Below are positions 3,828 through 14,149 of a stretch of DNA of 64,000 bases, piece after piece. The notes below the pieces were generated by a model. The model saw only the letters and a list, made by a program, of their open reading frames with translations, was not told where the DNA came from and ran no database searches. The number at the start of each line of letters is the position of its first letter. Position 1 is the stretch's first letter. The stretch covers positions 1-64,000 of the forward strand of contig JABWCP010000014.1 of NCBI GenBank assembly GCA_013360215.1. Direction: 5' to 3'. The translations under genes were made by a program, and so were the position numbers. The DNA is from a bacterium (GTDB lineage: Bacteria > CLD3 > SB21).

Positions 3828-4940
3828 CTATTCCCACTTAAATAATTTGACAGCTACCGCATAAACGACCACACCCCAAACGCCCAATACCATCAATTCA
3901 AAACCCACGTCGGCAAAACCTGCGCCTTCAAAGGCTATTTTGCGCAGCGCATCATTGACATACGTCAGCGGTAAAGCATGGCACACCGGTTGTAGCCATT
4001 CCGGGAAAACGCGAATACTAAAGAACGTGCCCGCCAACAAGAACTGTGGCATTACGATCAAATTGGCAATGGGGGGAACGGCTTGTTCATGGCGCGCTAT
4101 ATTTGAAACGATCATTCCAAAACCCAAAAACACCATGAGCGCGATGAGACAAACCAGCAGCATCATGAGTAGTGTCACCCATCCGTTGATCAGCGTGAAT
4201 CCGAAAACCCATTTGCCGATGAGTACGATGATGGATACTTGCGCCAACGCAAAAAGCATCCGTGCAATAGCCTCGCCGACCAAAATCACGCTCTTCGGCG
4301 CCGGTGTAGCAAACATTCGCTTGATCACCAATCGGGACTTGAGGGCAATAAGTAAATACGCCGCGCCGAAAATACCCGAACTAAGCACCACAAATCCTAA
4401 CTGACCCGGTAAAATAAAATCAATCGTTTTGTATCGCCGCCCTTCTATCGTCGTGTGCGCGATCGCAAGCGGCACATGCTGCACTTGCATCATAAGTAGA
4501 TTGGCCTGTGCGGTAAGACCGCGCAACATATTAAGCACCACAATACCATTGGGGGAAGCGTCGGAGGTCTGAATATGCGCAACATAACCGGAATCGGCTT
4601 TTTCAACGCGCATCAGCGCATCGACTTCACCTTTGCGTAGCTTTTCTGTCAGCGCTACGTCATCCAGATTACGCACCAATTTTATTTGATCAATATGACT
4701 GAGCATTTCCATCATCGGATTTTCTTGCGAATCATTTTGTATCATGCCGATGGTCAAATTCAATGTACGATTTCCTATAAAACCGAAAATGACGATGAAA
4801 ATGACAGGAAAAATAAATCCGAAGACGATGCTCGACGGATTGCGGCTAATCGCACGAAGGCTCGTAATGACATACACACGCAAAGCGTGAAAATAGGAAT
4901 AAGATTCGGGTTGATTCATCATGGTGTCTGGTTTTTTCAA
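3828..4940 (-). CDS. ABC-2 type exporter permease
   Basis: TM1, extracytoplasmic domain, then five TMs; LAGTFF..FPEWLQ...LPLTY motif. Start may be an ATG near 4922. Confidence 0.9.
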   Translation of the reverse strand: MKKPDTMMNQPESYSYFHALRVYVITSLRAISRNPSSIVFGFIFPVIFIVIFGFIGNRTLNLTIGMIQNDSQENPMMEMLSHIDQIKLVRNLDDVALTEKLRKGEVDALMRVEKADSGYVAHIQTSDASPNGIVVLNMLRGLTAQANLLMMQVQHVPLAIAHTTIEGRRYKTIDFILPGQLGFVVLSSGIFGAAYLLIALKSRLVIKRMFATPAPKSVILVGEAIARMLFALAQVSIIVLIGKWVFGFTLINGWVTLLMMLLVCLIALMVFLGFGMIVSNIARHEQAVPPIANLIVMPQFLLAGTFFSIRVFPEWLQPVCHALPLTYVNDALRKIAFEGAGFADVGFELMVLGVWGVVVYAVAVKLFKWE

Positions 4941-4943
4941 AAT

Positions 4944-5711
4944 TTAAGCGTCGCGCAGTTCTTTGCCGGTCAGATGTATAAATACATCTTCGAGTGTTGC
5001 TTCGCGTACACGGGTCGGTCGTTGGAACCCCGTAGCGAGTAAGCCGTGAATAAGCCGCTCCGGTGAATCCAGTGCTATGATACGTCCTTCATCCATGATA
5101 CCGACGCGATCGCATAACAACTCGGCTTCGTCAAGATAGTGTGTCGTCATGATAACCGTCGTACCGTCGTCGCGAATGGATCGAATCAATTCCCACAAAT
5201 TACGCCGGGCTTGCGGATCCAATCCTACGGTGGGCTCATCCAAAAAAACCACACGCGGTTTATGTATTAACGTCGTTGCTATGGAGAAGCGCTGTTTTTG
5301 TCCGCCGGAAAGTTTATCCACACGCGTTTTAGCCTTATCCGTCAGGCCGACTTTCGCCAGCAAGGCCGATGCATCATGATGCACATTGTACAAACCGGCA
5401 AACAGTACGCACACTTCGAGCAATGTGGAATTGGGATAATATCCCGCTTCCTGTAGCTGCACGCCGATTCGGCGTTTGATCAGCATCGGATCGCGATCAA
5501 CGGAAAATTCTTCAATCAGAACTTCGCCGGAAGTTTTTTCGCGCAATGTCTCCATGATCTCAAGCGTCGTCGTTTTGCCGGCGCCGTTAGGACCGAGCAA
5601 TCCGAAAATTTCGCCTTCGTACACATCAAAACTAATACCACGAATGGCTTCAAAAGAACCGTAATTTTTTTTCAGGTCACGCACCTGAACTATTTTTTTT
5701 CTCTCTGTCAT
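4944..5711 (-). CDS. ABC exporter ATP-binding protein
   Basis: GPNGAGKTT, LSGGQKQR, FLDEPTVGLD, TTH motifs. Confidence 0.95.
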   Translation of the reverse strand: MTERKKIVQVRDLKKNYGSFEAIRGISFDVYEGEIFGLLGPNGAGKTTTLEIMETLREKTSGEVLIEEFSVDRDPMLIKRRIGVQLQEAGYYPNSTLLEVCVLFAGLYNVHHDASALLAKVGLTDKAKTRVDKLSGGQKQRFSIATTLIHKPRVVFLDEPTVGLDPQARRNLWELIRSIRDDGTTVIMTTHYLDEAELLCDRVGIMDEGRIIALDSPERLIHGLLATGFQRPTRVREATLEDVFIHLTGKELRDA

Positions 5712-5798: not shown

Positions 5799-7991
5799 TC
5801 ATAAGCTCAAACTAAAACCCATCACAACGGTTCGGTTGCTGAAATAACTCGGCACACTATGACGTTCGGAGAAATCCTCGGAATATGAATAATCAAGAAT
5901 ATTTCGGATACCCAAAAGATTGAGCGCTTCAATATATAACACGACATGTTTCTGCGGACCGAGGATAAAAAACTTCGACAGACGGGCATCAAGCCGCTTG
6001 AAATCCGGGAACCGATCGGAATAATCGGCGGCATAAACCGGTTGCCAAATCCCGCGCACCGGATCGTATTGACCGGCGGTAACCGGCGTATAGGGGCGTC
6101 CTGTCGCATACCGCAGTGTAGAAGCCAATTCAAAATTACGCCCAAGGTTTTGTTTGACGATCAATGAAATATTATGGGTGATATCATAAAGACTGGGCCG
6201 CATTGTTTGAATCTGCATTTCTTTTCGCCGCGTCTGAATAAAACTATAGGAAAACCAACCGCTGGTTTTTACAAAACCGCCCTTTAGAAAAAAATCTAAA
6301 CCGCGCGCATACCCGCGCCCTTGACTGACATAGTTTTTATCTTCATCGGAAAGCGGCAGATGATCATACCATTTGTAGTACGACTCTATTTTTAGTTGAT
6401 ACGTCGCAGCATTCTTTTCCCACCCGACGACGGCATGGCGCGCACGCATCGCCTTAAGTTCGGGATTGCCGATGGTTTTATCGTACATCGTAATGTGCGG
6501 AAATTGATGAAATGTCCCGGCTGAAAAGCGTAAAAAAGAATTCGCGGCTAATTCATGCACAACGGAACCGCGTATATCCCATATTTGATTTTGTGACAAG
6601 GTCTGATAATCGGTGCGAAAACCTATTTGTGCCGACCAACGCCGCGCAATTTTTTGCTGCACTTCGGCATACGCAGCCACTACGGCAGCATGGTGATTTC
6701 CTTGCAAAACCACACTATCGGCGCCATTGTAATATTCGCCGCGCCGTAGCGGGAGTATATAATCAAACCGGTAGAAATCACCGTAGGTTTCTCCGCCAAA
6801 ACTCAAAATGGTTCGGTTATGCAATGCATAATGATGATCCCAGCGCCATTTGATATTGTACTCACGGTTCGCCCGCTTCCAGTCACCGAACGTCCAGTCG
6901 TTACGGTACATGCTATACGACCACGACGCCTTACTTGTCCATTGGGGGTTAAATAATTCCGACCACTGGAGACTCACAACGCGATTGCCGGTTTCCAAGG
7001 CGTACCGCTGGCTATTGGACTGCAACGTCAGGTCAAACGTCTGTGCATCGCGGCTTTCCAATATCATAGCCTGGATTTGCCCCGACGGACGGTAATTATA
7101 ATTAACGATGCCCGTGACATTGCTCGTTACCGGATCACGCACAACATCAAAAGCCGGTTTGTTCATTTTAAAAAGCAAAGCGGTCGAGGTATGATCCGCA
7201 TAGACCTGCGCGGAAAGCGTATTGGGAATAATCTGCCGTTGTAATCCTCCGCCGACCGATACGAGATTGGCATCCACAGCTACCCTGTTTTGCGCCACGT
7301 GATTATCCGTTTCGATATCCAGGACGCCGGATAACGCATTGCCATACCGCACGGAAAAACCGCCGCTGGAAAAATATAATTTTCTGATCACGGCGGTTTT
7401 GACAATCGTAAAAAGACCGTTGCCCGCCGTATTTTCGCCGTGATACGGATGAGCCAACGTCGCACCGTTGAACAGAATCAGGTTTTCGGAAGGACTGCCG
7501 CCGCGCACGGGAACAGCCGCTGTCTCATCCGTTTGTGTTACACCCGGCAAAACCTTGACGCTCTGAAAAACATCGGCGGCGCCGCCCGGCGTAGTATATA
7601 CATCTATTTTAGAAACGGCGACCTTGCCTTCACCGCCGCCGTAGGCGCTGGCCTCGATCACCAGTTCGCCCAATTCTACCGACTTCTCATGCATGGTGAC
7701 ATGAATTGTTTGAGCATGAGGTACTTTTATTTTCTTAACTTCCGTATCATAGCCGATCAAACTCGCTGTCAGATGACGCTCTCCGGCTATGTGCGTGCGA
7801 ATAATCGCCACACCGCTGTCATTGGTAAACGCTCCGGCAAAATCGCCGTCGGCAAAATACACATTGGCGTACGCCACTTTTTTTCCATCACTATCCACCA
7901 ACTGTACACGTACGGCATACGATGCGGCCGTCTGTGCGTAACTTTGGTATTGCGCGCATAGCAGCAGAACTACGATAAAAGTTTTTTTCAT
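5799..7991 (-). CDS. TonB-dependent receptor with N-terminal carboxypeptidase-regulatory-like domain
   Basis: Signal peptide from MKKTFIVV (ATG 7991); plug motifs LPGV, VRGGSPSEN, GGFSVRYGNALSGVLDI; beta-barrel ending GFSLSL. Confidence 0.88.
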   Translation of the reverse strand: MKKTFIVVLLLCAQYQSYAQTAASYAVRVQLVDSDGKKVAYANVYFADGDFAGAFTNDSGVAIIRTHIAGERHLTASLIGYDTEVKKIKVPHAQTIHVTMHEKSVELGELVIEASAYGGGEGKVAVSKIDVYTTPGGAADVFQSVKVLPGVTQTDETAAVPVRGGSPSENLILFNGATLAHPYHGENTAGNGLFTIVKTAVIRKLYFSSGGFSVRYGNALSGVLDIETDNHVAQNRVAVDANLVSVGGGLQRQIIPNTLSAQVYADHTSTALLFKMNKPAFDVVRDPVTSNVTGIVNYNYRPSGQIQAMILESRDAQTFDLTLQSNSQRYALETGNRVVSLQWSELFNPQWTSKASWSYSMYRNDWTFGDWKRANREYNIKWRWDHHYALHNRTILSFGGETYGDFYRFDYILPLRRGEYYNGADSVVLQGNHHAAVVAAYAEVQQKIARRWSAQIGFRTDYQTLSQNQIWDIRGSVVHELAANSFLRFSAGTFHQFPHITMYDKTIGNPELKAMRARHAVVGWEKNAATYQLKIESYYKWYDHLPLSDEDKNYVSQGRGYARGLDFFLKGGFVKTSGWFSYSFIQTRRKEMQIQTMRPSLYDITHNISLIVKQNLGRNFELASTLRYATGRPYTPVTAGQYDPVRGIWQPVYAADYSDRFPDFKRLDARLSKFFILGPQKHVVLYIEALNLLGIRNILDYSYSEDFSERHSVPSYFSNRTVVMGFSLSL

Positions 7992-8007
7992 TTTTATACC
8001 GGATTGA

Positions 8008-8784
8008 TTATTGCGTGTTTTTGTTCTCAAGTCGCATCAATTGCGCTTTAGCCCGGCGCGATTCGGGATTGATGGTCAATGATTTCTGATAACAACTTTT
8101 AGCTTCGTTAAACATTTTTTGCGCTTCGTATGCGGATCCTAAAAAAGAATAACACTCATCATAGCCCCATGTCGGCGCCAACGGATCCGCCGGCGGGTTG
8201 GTCGCTTCTTCTTCATACAAACGTATAGCTTTGAGAAAATCGCCCGTCGCTTTATCCGCACCGCCGCCAAACATGGACGGTGTATTCATCGTACCGATAC
8301 CGGTAAGATAAAAAACACGAGGGCTTTTGGGATCCGCTTCGACGGCTTTACTCATATACTCCTGTGATTTAGGGCCGAGCCACATAGCCGATAATGGATT
8401 AAAACGAATTTTCATACCTGTGAGAGAGCCCGTTAATGCTAACGACTCCGCATGACCCGGTTTGAGCGTGTTGATTTTTTCCAATAGAGACAGTCCCGTT
8501 TCGATATATTGTTTACCGGCGTCTTCATCGGGTTCGCTGCCGTACAGTTTCATGATCGCCAGACGATAATGTGCAAATGCGCTCCAATACAACGGCCACA
8601 CATTCTGCGGATCGGCCATAGCAGCCCGTTCACACAGTGCGCTGCCCTCGCGGATCATCGTTTCATTCCATGCGGCAAACCCATTTTGAATTTTGTTTTT
8701 TCCTTCGATGGCTATAGAAGCCGCCGGGTTTTGAGAAAAAAGTGTCCCCGCGGTCAACATCAGTACAACGATCATGCGCTTCAT
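8008..8784 (-). CDS. Secreted TPR-repeat protein
   Basis: ATG 8784 preceded by GGAGGA; signal peptide; TPR-like helices (AVEADPKSPR, YQKSLTINP); TPSMFGGG motif. Confidence 0.8.
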   Translation of the reverse strand: MKRMIVVLMLTAGTLFSQNPAASIAIEGKNKIQNGFAAWNETMIREGSALCERAAMADPQNVWPLYWSAFAHYRLAIMKLYGSEPDEDAGKQYIETGLSLLEKINTLKPGHAESLALTGSLTGMKIRFNPLSAMWLGPKSQEYMSKAVEADPKSPRVFYLTGIGTMNTPSMFGGGADKATGDFLKAIRLYEEEATNPPADPLAPTWGYDECYSFLGSAYEAQKMFNEAKSCYQKSLTINPESRRAKAQLMRLENKNTQ

Positions 8785-9738: not shown

Positions 9739-9811
9739 GTCCCCACAAGAGGTCTCCCCGACCTCTGGCTACGATAGAGACCCGGAAGCTTGTCTTCCGG
9801 GTGTTTTTTTT
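9739..9811 (+). ncRNA. Candidate small RNA with UCCCC-loop hairpin and intrinsic terminator
   Basis: AGAGGTC-TCCCC-GACCTCT hairpin (9748-9766); terminator ACCCGGAAG-CTTGT-CTTCCGGGT then G-T8 (9780-9811); no plausible + strand gene upstream to terminate. Confidence 0.5.
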
Positions 9812-9854: not shown

Positions 9855-9883
9855 TTGACTTTCATGCGCCGTTTATATAATAT
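9855..9883 (+). promoter_or_regulatory. sigma70-like promoter of the BMC shell operon
   Basis: TTGACT (9855-9860), 17 bp, TAATAT (9878-9883); AGGAGG RBS before ATG 9941. Confidence 0.6.
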
Positions 9884-9940
9884 CGAATACTATTTTGCAC
9901 ACTTGATGTCCTATCTCAATATTTTCTAGGAGGAATTTCC

Positions 9941-10225
9941 ATGGCTCTGGATGCATTAGGCATGGTAGAAACCAAAGGTTTGGTCGGCGCAATCGAAGCC
10001 GCTGACGCGATGGTCAAAGCCGCAAAAGTCGAATTAATCGGCAAAGAAAAAATCGGCGGTGGTTACGTGACCGTCATGGTACGTGGCGATGTCGGCGCTG
10101 TAAAAGCAGCTACCGATGCCGGCGCTGCAGCAGCAGAAAAAGTCGGCGAACTGGTTTCCGTCCACGTCATTCCGCGTCCGCATCCGGAAGTGGAACTTAT
10201 TCTTCCCAAAAAAGGCTCCAACTAA
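9941..10225 (+). CDS. BMC-H microcompartment shell protein (EutM/PduA/CcmK family)
   Basis: [24 protein letters not shown]...[11 protein letters not shown]...VHVIPRPH is the canonical BMC domain. Confidence 0.97.
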
Positions 10226-10243
10226 TTTAACACGGCAAATCGT

Positions 10244-10576
10244 ATGGCAGATGAACGTGCATTAGGAATGGTGGAAACGCTCGGATTGGTCGGTGCGATC
10301 GAAGCCGCAGACGCTATGATCAAAGCTTCCAATGTCAAACTGATCGGCAAAGAAATAACCGATGGTGCCATGATCACGATCAAAGTGGTCGGCGAAGTAG
10401 GCGCTGTACAAGCCTCTGTGTCCGCCGGTGAAGCCGCTGCACGTCGTGTAGGACAAGTCGTTTCCGTTCATATTATACCGCGTCCGGATGCAATGACGGA
10501 ATCCATCATCTATGATGAAGGATTGGTAGAAGCTCCGAGCGGCGGCACGGGCTCAAAAAAAAAACTGAACGCCTGA
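10244..10576 (+). CDS. Second BMC-H shell protein, short (0-frame) isoform, 110 aa
   Basis: [24 protein letters not shown]...VHIIPRPD; ends GSKKKLNA* across the A10 run. Confidence 0.95.
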   Translation: MADERALGMVETLGLVGAIEAADAMIKASNVKLIGKEITDGAMITIKVVGEVGAVQASVSAGEAAARRVGQVVSVHIIPRPDAMTESIIYDEGLVEAPSGGTGSKKKLNA

Positions 10577-10800
10577 CGCTTGCGCAGCAAGATCTGTTTA
10601 AGGGTGTTCAAAAAGGCGAATCCATACTTAAGAAGAAAAAGTTAGTTGTTCCTGAAACCGATTATCATGAGTTCAGCGTTTCGGAACTTCGGCATTATGC
10701 ACGGTCTGTTCCCAATTTCCCGCTAAAAGGCCGCGAAATTTCCAAAGCCAACCGGGATATGCTGATCGAAGAACTGGATAAAATAATTCCTAAAAAATAA
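10564..10800 (+). CDS. -1 frame C-terminal extension of the second BMC-H (78 aa; fused isoform about 185 aa)
   Basis: TERLTLAQQDLFKGVQKGESILKKKKLVVPETDYHEFSVSELRHYARSVPNFPLKGREISKANRDMLIEELDKIIPKK*. No ATG/GTG/TTG start between the upstream stop (10516) and the last residues; reached via A10 at 10555-10564. Confidence 0.8.
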   Translation, partial: TERLTLAQQDLFKGVQKGESILKKKKLVVPETDYHEFSVSELRHYARSVPNFPLKGREISKANRDMLIEELDKIIPKK

Positions 10801-10833
10801 ACACCCTGAACATCCTTCAGGGTGTTCTTTTTT
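10800..10833 (+). terminator. Intrinsic terminator of the BMC operon
   Basis: AACACCCTGAA-CATCC-TTCAGGGTGTT then C-T6, immediately after the -1 frame stop. Confidence 0.8.
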
Positions 10834-10853: not shown

Positions 10854-12344
10854 ATGTTTAAATTGCCCGAATGGCTTCTGCGTGCCGACCGGCGAATTCA
10901 GGAGCTTAATCTCTTTCGCCGGATCTTCATCATGATGTTTCCGCTCATGATCGCGGCGATTGGTGTATTTGAAATCACCATACGCTGGTTTGATATCCAC
11001 GCTATCGAGTACGCACACATATGGATCATACTAATTCCGCTTATTTTTTCTATCATCATATCGTATTTATCGGCTCGATTTACCGCGAAAGAAGTTGCCC
11101 ATCCTATCAAACTCTTCATCGAAAGCGCCAAAGCCATCGCGCGTGGTAATTTTGATCACAAGGTCAATGTGCATACCAGCGAAGAAATGACTCAGCTTTC
11201 GCGCATTTTTAACTATATGACCCGTGAATTGAAAGAGATCAATCAGGGCAACATCCGAAAAACAATCCAAGAAAAAATTAAGACCGAAGCCATCATTCGC
11301 AATATTGCCGACGGTATTATCGTGGTCGGCCCGCTGAATGAAGTTCTGATGATCAATGAAGTGGTCGAAGGATGGTTTCATGTACAACAAAAAGCCGTCA
11401 TCGGTTTTTCGCTCAATTTTTTCTTTCCCGAACTCAAATTTCTCGTGAAACAGGCGCTTGACACACAAGGCGAAACGGTTTTTCAGGACGAACTTACGAT
11501 CAAGCCGCTCAATAGCCCCTCGGAAATCTATCTCGGTGCCAATGCTTCCAAAGTCATGGATAACGACGATCTGATTGCTTTGGTTATTGTTCTTAGAAAT
11601 ATTACGAAAGAAAAAGAAATTGATCGGATGAAAACCGAACTGGTGAATGTCGTCGCCCATGAACTGCGCTCACCGTTGACCAGTATCGCCGGTTTCAGTG
11701 AAATCATCAAAGATCCGCATTTATCGGAAGCCATTCGTAAAGAATACATTGATATTATCCACTACGAATCCGGTCGTTTAGCTGAAATGATTTCCAAGTT
11801 TCTGGACATCAGTCGCATTGAAAGCGGTAAAACGGTTATCAATAAAGTCCCATGCGATCTTACCACGGTTGTAGATAACACCATCACCGCCAACACACCG
11901 ATGGCTCAAAAGCGCAGCATGCACGTCAGCAGCACATTGCCCAAATGGGTTCCTCTGGTTCACGCCGATCCCGACCTGATCGGTCAGGTCGTACTCAATT
12001 TCTTTTCCAATGCCGTGAAATACAGCCCCGAAGGTTCAGAGATCAAACTGCGTGTCGCGGTCGCGGATGATACGGTGATCGTGGAAGTGTCCGATAACGG
12101 CTACGGTATATCCAAAGAGAATATGAAACATCTGTTTCAGAAATTTTTTCGCGCTAAAGATGAGAAACATGTGAAAGATGTGGAAGGCACCGGTTTGGGA
12201 TTGGCGTTCGTCAAAGAAATCATCCATCAGCACAATGGTACCATACATGTCGAGAGCGAAGTCGGAAAAGGTTCTTCTTTTTCGTTTGCCCTGCCGATTG
12301 ATTTTACACTGCCGGAAAATGCTGCGCTCAAACCCGCTTCATGA
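10854..12344 (+). CDS. Membrane sensor histidine kinase (HAMP-PAS-HisKA-HATPase)
   Basis: 2 TM; VAHELRSPLT, NFFSNAVKYS, DNGYGI, GTGLGL motifs. Confidence 0.93.
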   Translation: MFKLPEWLLRADRRIQELNLFRRIFIMMFPLMIAAIGVFEITIRWFDIHAIEYAHIWIILIPLIFSIIISYLSARFTAKEVAHPIKLFIESAKAIARGNFDHKVNVHTSEEMTQLSRIFNYMTRELKEINQGNIRKTIQEKIKTEAIIRNIADGIIVVGPLNEVLMINEVVEGWFHVQQKAVIGFSLNFFFPELKFLVKQALDTQGETVFQDELTIKPLNSPSEIYLGANASKVMDNDDLIALVIVLRNITKEKEIDRMKTELVNVVAHELRSPLTSIAGFSEIIKDPHLSEAIRKEYIDIIHYESGRLAEMISKFLDISRIESGKTVINKVPCDLTTVVDNTITANTPMAQKRSMHVSSTLPKWVPLVHADPDLIGQVVLNFFSNAVKYSPEGSEIKLRVAVADDTVIVEVSDNGYGISKENMKHLFQKFFRAKDEKHVKDVEGTGLGLAFVKEIIHQHNGTIHVESEVGKGSSFSFALPIDFTLPENAALKPAS

Positions 12345-12352
12345 TATCTTTT

Positions 12353-14149
12353 CTAAGCAATGAACTCCTGATCTTTGTATTGCAATTGATACAACCTGTA
12401 ATATAATCCACCCATAGCCAATAATTCTTCATGCGTTCCGCGCTCACGGATTCGCCCCTTGTGTAAAACCAGAATCTGATCCACGTGTCTGATGGTTGAC
12501 AGACGGTGGGCAATGATTACCGACGTGCGCCCTTGCATCAGTTGGGCTATGGCTTTTTGTATCAGGCGTTCCGTTTCGGTATCGATACTTGATGTTGCTT
12601 CATCCAAAATCAATATCCGCGGATCAAAAACCAACGCGCGCGCCATCGCAATCAATTGGCGTTGGCCTACCGAAAGCGTGCTGCCGCGCTCTTGCACGGG
12701 TTCAAGATATTGTAAAGGAAGCCGGCGAATAAAATCATCCGCACCGACTCGCCGCGCGGCTTCTTCGACCTGCGCTTCACTAATATCATGACGACCTAGA
12801 CGTATATTGTCTAAAATCGTACCCGAAAATAAAAATACATCCTGTAACACCACGGCCATCGTGCGACGCAAAGCATATTGATCCATCCGGCGAATATCCG
12901 TCTGATCCAGTAAAATATCGCCGCGCTGAGCTTCATAAAACCGCGACGCAAGGTTGATAATCGTACTTTTGCCCGAACCCGTCGCACCGACCAATGCAAC
13001 ACTTTGACCGGGCTGAGTAACAAACGAAATATCTTTTAAAATATAGTCTTCATCCGAGCGTATATCCTGAGGATTATAAGCAAAATACACATTACGAAAT
13101 TCAATGCGTCCTGACATCACTTTCGGCGTTATCGGTTGAGCCGGATTAGGTATTTCCGTCGGTGTGTCTATGAGTTTGAAAACACGCTCCGACGAAGCCA
13201 TCGCTGTCTGCAGAATATTGTATTTATCACTCAGATCCTGAATCGGCCTGAAAAACAACATGCCGTACTGTATAAAAGCAATCAATGTACCCAGTGTTAT
13301 TGACGAAGAGCGCACTTCTCCGCTTCCATACCAAATCAACATGCCGATGGCAAAACTACTCGCCACGTTGATCGCCGGATAAAACCAGGCGTAATGAAAT
13401 ACCGAATCCAAATGTGAATCCGTGAGCGTACGATTGAGCGCATCAAACTTTTCAAAATTTTTCTTCTCACGATTAAAAATTTGAACCGTGGTGACGCCGG
13501 TGATATTTTCCTGAAGATACGAATTTAAAGCTGCGATTTTAAGACGCACTTCGCGAAACGCGACCCGTACCTTGGACTTGAACACAACGGATATATAGAA
13601 TATGAGTGGCAAAATGGCCAGCGTAACGAGTGTCAAATGTACATCGAGAACAAACATCATGACAATAATGCCGGCCAATAAAAAAATATCACCGAAAAGA
13701 TAGACAAGCCCGGAAGTAAACATATCGTTAAGCGATTCGATATCCGATGTTACGCGTGTGATAAGTCGGCCCACGGGGTTTCGATCAAAAAATTGCAAAT
13801 GAAGATGCTCGAGATGCGTAAATAATTTCATCCGCAGATCAAAAATGATACGCTGACCCATCAGTTGAGTCACATAGATCACACAGTATTGTAAAAGAAA
13901 TTCGCCGATCAAAAGAACGACAAACAAGATGGCAAAATTGCGTAAACGTAATCCGTCACCGGCCAGTATAGCCGCGTCCACGGCTTCCTGAACAAGTTTG
14001 GGACGGTATGCGCTAAAACCCTGAGCGGCTATTAATAAAATCACAGAAACAACGGCCATCCATCGATACGGGCGAACCAAACTCAATAGCCTACGCATCA
14101 AACGCGCATCGTAGGCTTTCCCCATGATATCATCATCTTGTGTCTGCAT
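12353..14149 (-). CDS. ABC exporter, fused permease/ATPase (MsbA/MdlB-like)
   Basis: Six-TM domain plus GATGSGKST, LSVGQRQ, ILDEATSS. Confidence 0.93.
   Translation of the reverse strand: MQTQDDDIMGKAYDARLMRRLLSLVRPYRWMAVVSVILLIAAQGFSAYRPKLVQEAVDAAILAGDGLRLRNFAILFVVLLIGEFLLQYCVIYVTQLMGQRIIFDLRMKLFTHLEHLHLQFFDRNPVGRLITRVTSDIESLNDMFTSGLVYLFGDIFLLAGIIVMMFVLDVHLTLVTLAILPLIFYISVVFKSKVRVAFREVRLKIAALNSYLQENITGVTTVQIFNREKKNFEKFDALNRTLTDSHLDSVFHYAWFYPAINVASSFAIGMLIWYGSGEVRSSSITLGTLIAFIQYGMLFFRPIQDLSDKYNILQTAMASSERVFKLIDTPTEIPNPAQPITPKVMSGRIEFRNVYFAYNPQDIRSDEDYILKDISFVTQPGQSVALVGATGSGKSTIINLASRFYEAQRGDILLDQTDIRRMDQYALRRTMAVVLQDVFLFSGTILDNIRLGRHDISEAQVEEAARRVGADDFIRRLPLQYLEPVQERGSTLSVGQRQLIAMARALVFDPRILILDEATSSIDTETERLIQKAIAQLMQGRTSVIIAHRLSTIRHVDQILVLHKGRIRERGTHEELLAMGGLYYRLYQLQYKDQEFIA

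Follow-up and report, generated by a model that had tools for sequence, protein, structure and literature searches.

A conserved run of ten adenines as a candidate recoding site between a microcompartment shell gene and a tail in the −1 frame

The DNA analysed here (the window) is a stretch of 64,000 nucleotides (nt), positions 1 to 64,000 of contig JABWCP010000014.1 (assembly GCA_013360215.1), from a bacterium of the GTDB lineage CLD3; SB21. It includes two adjacent genes on the forward strand for shell proteins of bacterial microcompartments (BMC) of the BMC-H type. The second contains, close to its stop codon, a run of ten adenines (A10) from which a 78-residue tail can be reached in the −1 frame. 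We consider it very likely, from comparison of the related loci, that this A10 is a programmed recoding site of some kind. A fuller reading, in which conserved programmed recoding at A10 would provide both plain and tailed shell subunits with transcriptional slippage as the main mechanism, is in our judgement the probable one, although it is held with clearly less confidence.

The message as templated by the DNA would be translated into a plain BMC-H hexamer subunit of 110 amino acids (aa). In a fraction of expression events, a −1 change at the run would give a 185-aa subunit composed of the BMC domain and the 78-residue tail, the latter made up of a conserved short helix and a basic C-terminal domain of three helices, with a linker between them. 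RNA polymerase would slip on the A10/T10 hybrid and add one non-templated A, and the resulting A11 mRNA would be read by ordinary translation into the tail; a −1 ribosomal slip on A_AAA_AAA may add to this slippage, and both may act together. Shell hexamers would then contain tailed subunits as a fixed minority. We infer from sequence the production of both proteins as well as the mechanism, the ratio and the role of the tail.

The first gene (9941-10225) encodes a tail-less protein of 94 aa (PF00936, E 4.5e-30) and is separated by 18 nt from the second (10244-10576), whose 0-frame product of 110 aa ends in ...GSKKKLNA (PF00936, E 2.9e-24) and carries one BMC domain (residues 6-81, 85.2 bits against a Pfam gathering cut-off of 24.5). 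The candidate recoding site occupies positions 10555-10564 in the context TCA AAA AAA AAA CTG AAC GCC TGA, as had been read in a first-pass annotation made from the sequence alone, and the 0-frame stop (TGA, 10574-10576) lies four codons past the run. Either one additional A in the mRNA or a −1 slip of the ribosome would join the BMC domain to the tail. The latter (TERL...IIPKK) extends with its stop codon from 10564 to 10800, and translation reproduces the 78 codons previously proposed; the stop (TAA, 10798-10800) is 224 nt downstream of that in the 0 frame. An A11 message would encode a fused product of 107 + 78 = 185 aa. This agrees with the size of about 185 aa predicted at first pass for a second subunit alongside the 110-aa one, and the recoding proposed there is supported by the comparative tests described below.

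The tail frame is open from 10519 and its sole canonical start is the ATG at 10759 (tail codon 66). Across the loci compared, no start codon of the tail is conserved. An intrinsic-terminator-like hairpin with a T run (10800-10833, comprising an 11-pair stem at 10800-10826 followed by CTTTTTT) begins at the tail stop codon, a coincidence already noticed at first pass. Near the 0-frame stop only a weak terminator-like match of five pairs is present (10579-10591), the strong one being found solely after the tail stop.

Conservation of the run and coding character of the tail

In this analysis the order is represented by 18 species genomes and the phylum by 20. A search for the tail in 61 genomes gave 18 positives, including the genome of the window itself (G000); the others are 12 of the 14 genomes in its family, all three in the order's second family, a single further member of the class, and one genome (G038) that falls in a different phylum. 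All 15 readable junctions of the order (the window and 14 species genomes) have a run of exactly ten A's and a tail readable at −1, and the early 0-frame stop is likewise conserved in all 15, so that the conservation of run, stop and tail anticipated by the first-pass annotation is borne out. In each of the 14 relatives with both parts on one contig, the tail frame is the BMC frame minus one. The first BMC-H gene adjoins the tailed paralogue in relatives too, and orthologues of the second gene are 69-87% identical to it. Despite diverged flanks the junction stays A10, and it does so in two codon phases, NNA-AAA-AAA-AAA in 10 loci and AAA-AAA-AAA-ANN in five. Because it is conserved throughout the order, the run is not private to the window.

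Three genomes of the order lack a readable tail junction. In G014 (L089, G014:C599), which has the same histidine kinase gene downstream, 97 N cover the junction; in G016 (L088, G016:C192) the BMC part and the tail were assembled at the ends of two separate contigs; from G004 the query used retrieved no orthologue. The assemblies of G014 and G016 therefore break exactly at the shell-gene junction, which may reflect a difficulty in assembling or scaffolding across the run.

Miscalling of the homopolymer was addressed with assemblies of different origin. X9, a DNA contig of 46.9 kb from another sample, reads A10 without indel, as do three contigs from RNA libraries which bridge the run (X15, to 10721; X16, to 10702; X18, to 10778; these end points are uninformative on transcript ends). 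Thus, both the independent DNA contig and the RNA-library contigs give A10, not the A11 or A8 that the first-pass annotation had named as signs of an assembly error. The RNA-library contigs continue beyond the 0-frame stop of the BMC gene and reach the tail; DNA carry-over is a possible source of such contigs. Seven junctions re-fetched from another genome collection read alike, and are not taken as independent support because they are probably from the same species genomes. In the relatives, the same assemblies that give A10 in the shell gene contain dnaX runs of A10, A11 and A12, all of them in frame; homopolymer lengths are therefore called reliably and without systematic collapse. The A10 of the shell gene is neither an assembly error nor a private mutation.

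The tail is under purifying selection as coding sequence of the −1 frame. The tails of 14 genomes of the order are 54-69% identical to that of the window, and their pairwise differences at the three codon positions of the −1 frame amount to 0.286, 0.185 and 0.586. Read in this frame the tails have a median dN/dS of 0.14 (34 of 105 pairs, the remaining pairs being saturated in dS), compared with 1.1 and 2.4 for the two alternative frames. The same pattern is seen at close range in X18, which represents a related strain with 13 substitutions relative to the window: its four changes after the run (10578, 10584, 10587 and 10596) are all synonymous third-position changes in the −1 frame, and its eight changes in the BMC part are likewise confined to third positions, there of frame 0.

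That the arrangement might be a decaying remnant, a fused gene broken by the loss of one base, or else a homopolymer miscall, has in its favour that in-frame fusions are the form found outside the phylum and that dnaX of the window genome is also out of frame at an A10 run. Neither version sits well with a tail dN/dS of 0.14 in the −1 frame across 15 species, with identical A10 runs in assemblies of different origin and in DNA and RNA-library contigs, or with the in-frame calling of dnaX runs of A10 to A12 in 16 of 16 relatives from the same assemblies, and we regard this explanation as barely credible. Assembly error and pseudogene were both rejected on the conservation of A10, the DNA and RNA contigs, dN/dS and the dnaX run calls. 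The first-pass annotation had seen in-frame fusions without an A-run in relatives as the mark of a private mutation or error; such fusions do exist outside the phylum, but within the order the A-run is conserved.

Phase variation at the DNA level, in which A10 and A11 would interconvert at replication and the tail would be switched on in a subpopulation, is a second alternative. Long homopolymers are hypermutable (PMC1088944), the sister lineage G018 has an A11 run with the tail in frame, and dnaX runs range from A10 to A12 between species. A switching locus would, however, be expected in its on state somewhere, and A10 was obtained in 15 of 15 species junctions, in the X9 DNA contig and in the RNA-library contig of the related strain. 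Contigs hide minorities and could miss a rare on-state; taken together, these observations make phase variation very unlikely.

It could also be supposed that the tail is a small gene in its own right, with translation beginning at a non-canonical start codon or resuming, through re-initiation, beyond the stop of BMC-H. Stand-alone open reading frames (ORFs) have been predicted for it (P0002, 74 aa; P0003, 51 aa), and in L002 an ATG at tail codon 4 overlaps the 0-frame stop as TAATG. This is the single case among 15 loci of a canonical start near the tail beginning. The tail frame of three loci contains no canonical start at all; in the other loci the first occurs at codon 37 or later, inside the conserved domain. 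Since starts are mostly absent or so far downstream, independent initiation cannot explain the conservation of the first 36 tail residues. The residues directly after the run are conserved, and elsewhere the domain is the C-terminus of BMC-H proteins (107 of the best 150 matches). A separate tail gene with its own start was rejected as the general case on the distribution of start codons, and we hold this alternative to be highly improbable. The two orphan ORFs, which are the closest matches of the tail profile, reflect the treatment of the tail by gene callers in the phylum: these programs miss or mis-call the tail of the BMC-H gene.

Slippage or frameshifting at the run

Runs as long as that of the shell gene are scarce in the window genome, which contains 3226 A/T runs of length 7, 1087 of length 8, 141 of length 9, 13 of length 10 and none longer. 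Among the 13 A10/T10 runs, only those of the shell gene and of dnaX link a long upstream frame to a long downstream frame. Two others (C11:76818-76827 and C21:48120-48129) each fall within a single long reading frame of the A-sense strand. At the shell-gene junctions the lysine codons are AAA in 45 of 45 cases, compared to 115 AAA and 44 AAG inside the tails, and a conserved KKKK block in the tails never includes more than six consecutive A's. The maintenance of A10 in both codon phases and the exclusive use of AAA for the junction lysines argue that the length of the run is itself under selection.

Programmed −1 ribosomal frameshifting offers another route to the same two proteins: the mRNA would remain A10 and some ribosomes would slip back on A_AAA_AAA. 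A precedent exists in the microcompartment protein CsoS2 (PMC5009743), and the −1 relation of the frames in 15 of 15 loci is that expected. The ten-A run holds this heptamer in every phase, which leaves room for a ribosomal event. Seven A's would nevertheless be enough for frameshifting, yet ten are kept in both phases. A downstream stimulator is not a conserved feature: RNAalifold applied to 15 sequences, from −30 to +100 around the run, found 0 pairs and no consensus structure, and minimum free energies downstream of the run in the relatives range from 0 to −9.1 kcal/mol with unlike shapes. Neither is an upstream stimulator of the Shine-Dalgarno type, a 4-nt core of AGGAGG at 4-22 nt upstream occurring in only three of 15 loci. 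Frameshifting as the principal mechanism is in our view unlikely, and deserves serious consideration all the same.

Transcriptional slippage has been associated with homopolymer runs of nine or more (PMC1088944) and, in preference to frameshifting, with the presence of both tRNA-Lys(UUU) and tRNA-Lys(CUU) (PMC5009743). The window genome carries both tRNAs. These, together with the constancy of A10 in two codon phases, the lack of a conserved stimulator and the parallel with dnaX described below, lead us to favour slippage.

Several points weigh on the other side. The A_AAA_AAA heptamer is in phase in both codon arrangements and at every locus. In the window, and in this genome only, a local RNA hairpin that could act as a frameshift stimulator (10567-10609) starts 2 nt past the run (−14.9 kcal/mol, z −1.88, with 8 of 200 shuffles as good). 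The RNA-library contigs show A10 only and no A11, in a form of evidence, assembled contigs, from which minority variants are dropped, and RNA libraries can contain DNA. The 15 genomes are kin, and the counts overstate their independence. Finally, the analogy between dnaX and the shell gene is an indirect one.

In Thermus thermophilus, slippage on a run of nine in dnaX leads to tau and gamma in a ratio of about 1:1 (PMC5009743, PMC1088944). Runs are present at the gamma/tau junction of dnaX in 16 of 16 relatives of the window genome (L046-L061, G001-G017), with A10 in 12, A11 in three and A12 in one. Tau is in frame in these genes, and stops occur one to four codons off in the −1 frame and one to seven in the +1 frame. 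To judge from sequence, the arrangement is that described for transcriptional slippage in Thermus; we know of no earlier description of it in this phylum. No dnaX was found with the query used in G004, G018 and G019.

The dnaX gene of the window genome itself (L044/L045, G000:C28:445-454, minus strand) is out of frame at its A10 run. Its 0 frame ends in ...TETVKKKVVP*, three codons past the run, and its −1 frame continues for at least 148 codons, corresponding to the C-terminal part of tau, to the end of the contig. Compared by eye with those of the relatives, the gene is one base shorter, and the missing base lies immediately after the run instead of within it. A reversed polarity of dnaX is mentioned for a few bacteria (PMC5009743).

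The tail domain, its relatives and the compartment

An AlphaFold model of the tail, obtained with a 16-row alignment (mean pLDDT 74.8), predicts a short helix at residues 6-11, followed by a linker of low confidence and by a C-terminal unit of three helices (39-48, 56-61 and 64-74; pLDDT 84-90 in that part). Alignment and predicted structure place this C-terminal domain at tail residues 37-78 (10672-10797). Its invariant residues are V39, L42, R43, A46, R47, F52, G56, R57, S60 and L67, and the consensus across phyla is NVHxLRxLARSxxxFPIKGREISKANRxxLLxYF. A second conserved motif of the family (P0004-P0151), RLRxEA, lies upstream of the domain.

The domain belongs to a large family. In a set of 1.84 billion, 572 representative proteins matched a profile of the tails at E ≤0.001, nearly always at their C-terminal end. 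An N-terminal BMC domain is present in 107 of the best 150 matches according to phmmer, and in 111 of 148 by Pfam, in accordance with the earlier suggestion that such tails occur on C-terminally extended BMC-H proteins. The fusion proteins measure 140-460 aa and their linkers are variable and often acidic. The family thus consists mostly of BMC-H fusions, in which long acidic linkers are common, and the Pfam copy searched includes no model for it. Roughly 40 of the top 150 matches lack a BMC domain, and some of these may be fragments or further split or recoded genes.

The sequence pattern of the tail resembles SAP and Rho_N helix-extended-helix motifs, and a Rho-N/HeH-like domain had been suggested at first pass. 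Direct matches do not bear this label out: a Pfam search with E values up to 10 gives no family for the window tail, and among 16 tails there are only stray matches of single members, all above 0.01, including SAP (0.069) and Fan1_SAP (0.047) in one of 16 each. PF07498 has 21 matches over the 20 genomes, 19 in rho-sized frames and two in short frames (G018 and G019), none of them a shell-gene tail. With the tail as query, Foldseek against the PDB returned nothing below E 3.9, and a PDB sequence search gave only weak spectrin matches, on the linker part, at E 0.012 or worse. Atlas feature scores for the tail are 0.80-0.86, below the 0.9 line. Comparison by hhalign with the Rho_N of the phylum gave a probability of 0.87 (E 0.063) in the expected register. 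More in favour of the label is P0090, a non-BMC protein with three repeats of the tail domain, which matches both the tail profile (E 4.9e-9, 171-226) and Pfam Rho_N (2.7e-17, 187-227). It was the only protein matched by a local Rho_N profile among the 150 tail-profile proteins; Pfam recognized Rho_N in six and SAP in five of 148 tail relatives. We therefore treat a resemblance of the Rho_N/SAP type as weakly suggested only.

The C-terminus of BMC-H is located in shell structures on the concave side, which faces the cytosol. For this reason, our guess is that the tail could, on a minority of subunits, act as a basic tether on the exterior and bind nucleic acid or some other polyanion.

In-frame fusions of BMC-H and tail were identified at L017, L063, L064, L101 and L103-L106, under the labels Melioribacter, Melioribacteraceae, Latescibacterota, Caldithrix and KSB1, and include G038 (L017) and two metagenome contigs. 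Each has a single open frame and no A run of eight or more at the junction. A metagenome scan yielded two loci only, both of them in-frame fusions from other lineages. The in-frame fusion is thus the form of the gene outside the phylum.

A third arrangement is seen in G018, which belongs to a sister family in the same class (L018, G018:C141, locus 1486-1496). The run is A11 and the tail, which is shorter (44 residues), is in frame; both other frames stop within one to three codons. As read from the DNA, this site has the opposite polarity to the A10 site of the window. With the A10 of the order, it places an A-run at the junction in both lineages of the class, and it is the DNA-templated product that differs.

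Shell genes are scattered in the window genome and comprise the two BMC-H genes of the window, a tandem-domain BMC gene on C49 and four BMC-P genes (two on C32, one on C28 and one on C14). The tandem-domain gene (L066, G000:C49:54001-70000, locus 7477-8025) has among its neighbours RpiB (4532-4981), a tryptophan 2,3-dioxygenase-like gene and a PduS-like protein with Complex1_51K, Fer4 and RnfC_N (6140-7450), and an aldehyde dehydrogenase gene follows 3 kb further on (11101-12549). The combination of RpiB with a DeoC aldolase is the signature of the sugar-phosphate (SPU) type (PMC8217296). The neighbourhood of the tandem-domain gene hints at a compartment of this type with scattered loci. In L065 (G000:C32:44001-64000, locus 9898-10520), a BMC-P gene (PF03319) stands immediately next to a small cupin-domain gene. 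Genes for a sigma-70 factor, a GGDEF/GAF protein and a PEP-utilising enzyme are in the vicinity, with no recognisable cluster of cargo enzymes.

A more far-reaching idea, to which we give little credence, is that slippage would act throughout the phylum as a heritable means of setting isoform ratios, in at least dnaX and a shell tile and with either polarity templated, and that the shell would display on its outside a sub-stoichiometric, basic tail of Rho_N/SAP-like type, able to bind nucleic acids and so to anchor the compartment to the nucleoid or to a substrate derived from nucleic acid. The latter would fit a sugar-phosphate compartment, involved in DNA breakdown, as the RpiB and PduS-like genes beside the tandem-domain gene hint.

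Upstream of the two-gene operon, a terminator-like hairpin (9780-9802) precedes a promoter-like site (9855-9883, forward strand) of the form TTGACT-17-TAATAT. This matches the consensus at nine of 12 positions and, with three such sites in the region against 2.2 expected, is a weak match to be taken as a suggestion. The histidine kinase gene downstream of the operon (10854-12344) has a syntenic counterpart in G014 at least, and may encode a regulator associated with this satellite shell locus.

Known systems and implications

If slippage operates at the shell gene, the mechanism would be by analogy that of mxiE and Thermus dnaX, and if the event is ribosomal, that of E. coli dnaX and CsoS2. 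In Shigella flexneri, slippage fuses mxiEa and mxiEb (PMC1088944). As proposed for the shell gene, the frames overlap at a homopolymer run, one non-templated nucleotide is involved, and the long product is the slipped and the short one the templated form. The shell gene differs in coding for a structural shell protein, in its A10 and in its conservation across an order, mxiE being the regulator of one pathogen; slippage at the shell gene is moreover a proposal made from sequence. Thermus thermophilus dnaX (A9) provides the example of a long A run in a cellular gene with two C-terminal lengths, a set ratio and close stops in the other frames. The dnaX genes of the relatives (A10-A12) and the shell gene of G018 (A11) share this arrangement, whereas the window shell gene, a member of another gene family, has the reversed polarity, its long product being the one that would require the slip.

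Among microcompartment proteins, −1 ribosomal frameshifting of CsoS2 in alpha-carboxysomes leads to CsoS2A and CsoS2B (PMC5009743), two forms of one protein made by recoding, as is proposed for the shell gene. CsoS2 is however a scaffold and not a BMC-domain tile, and frameshifting yields its shorter form. A stem-loop on the 3′ side acts as stimulator in CsoS2, whereas no structure is conserved at the shell gene.

The in-frame BMC-H-tail proteins of Ignavibacteria-, Calditrichota-, KSB1- and Latescibacterota-labelled sequences combine the same BMC domain, a variable linker and the C-terminal domain. In these, without an A-run, every subunit is tailed, whereas the order of the window can reach the tail only by a change of frame. 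Two isoforms from one gene are also known for PduB/PduB', where they result from two start codons and not from recoding. EutK likewise joins a BMC-H domain to a C-terminal domain resembling those which bind nucleic acids, but in frame and with a fold unlike that of the window tail.

Standard examples of conserved recoding in ordinary bacterial genes are dnaX and prfB; to our knowledge, such recoding in ordinary cellular genes of bacteria is rare. Among the papers that could be searched, we found no published recoding in a BMC shell protein gene, and recoding in microcompartments was found only for the CsoS2 scaffold. In the main text of the 2021 BMC catalogue (PMC8217296) the word 'frameshift' has 0 occurrences. 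What appears to be new here is the combination, that is a conserved putative recoding site in the gene of a shell tile.

This bears on the open question of how the composition of the shell and the decoration of its surface are controlled. If the two isoforms are real, the number of tailed subunits would be set by a hard-wired event at one homopolymer and not by separate genes or promoters. If true, it would also offer a compact engineering route to the display of cargo or tethers on a fraction of shell tiles.

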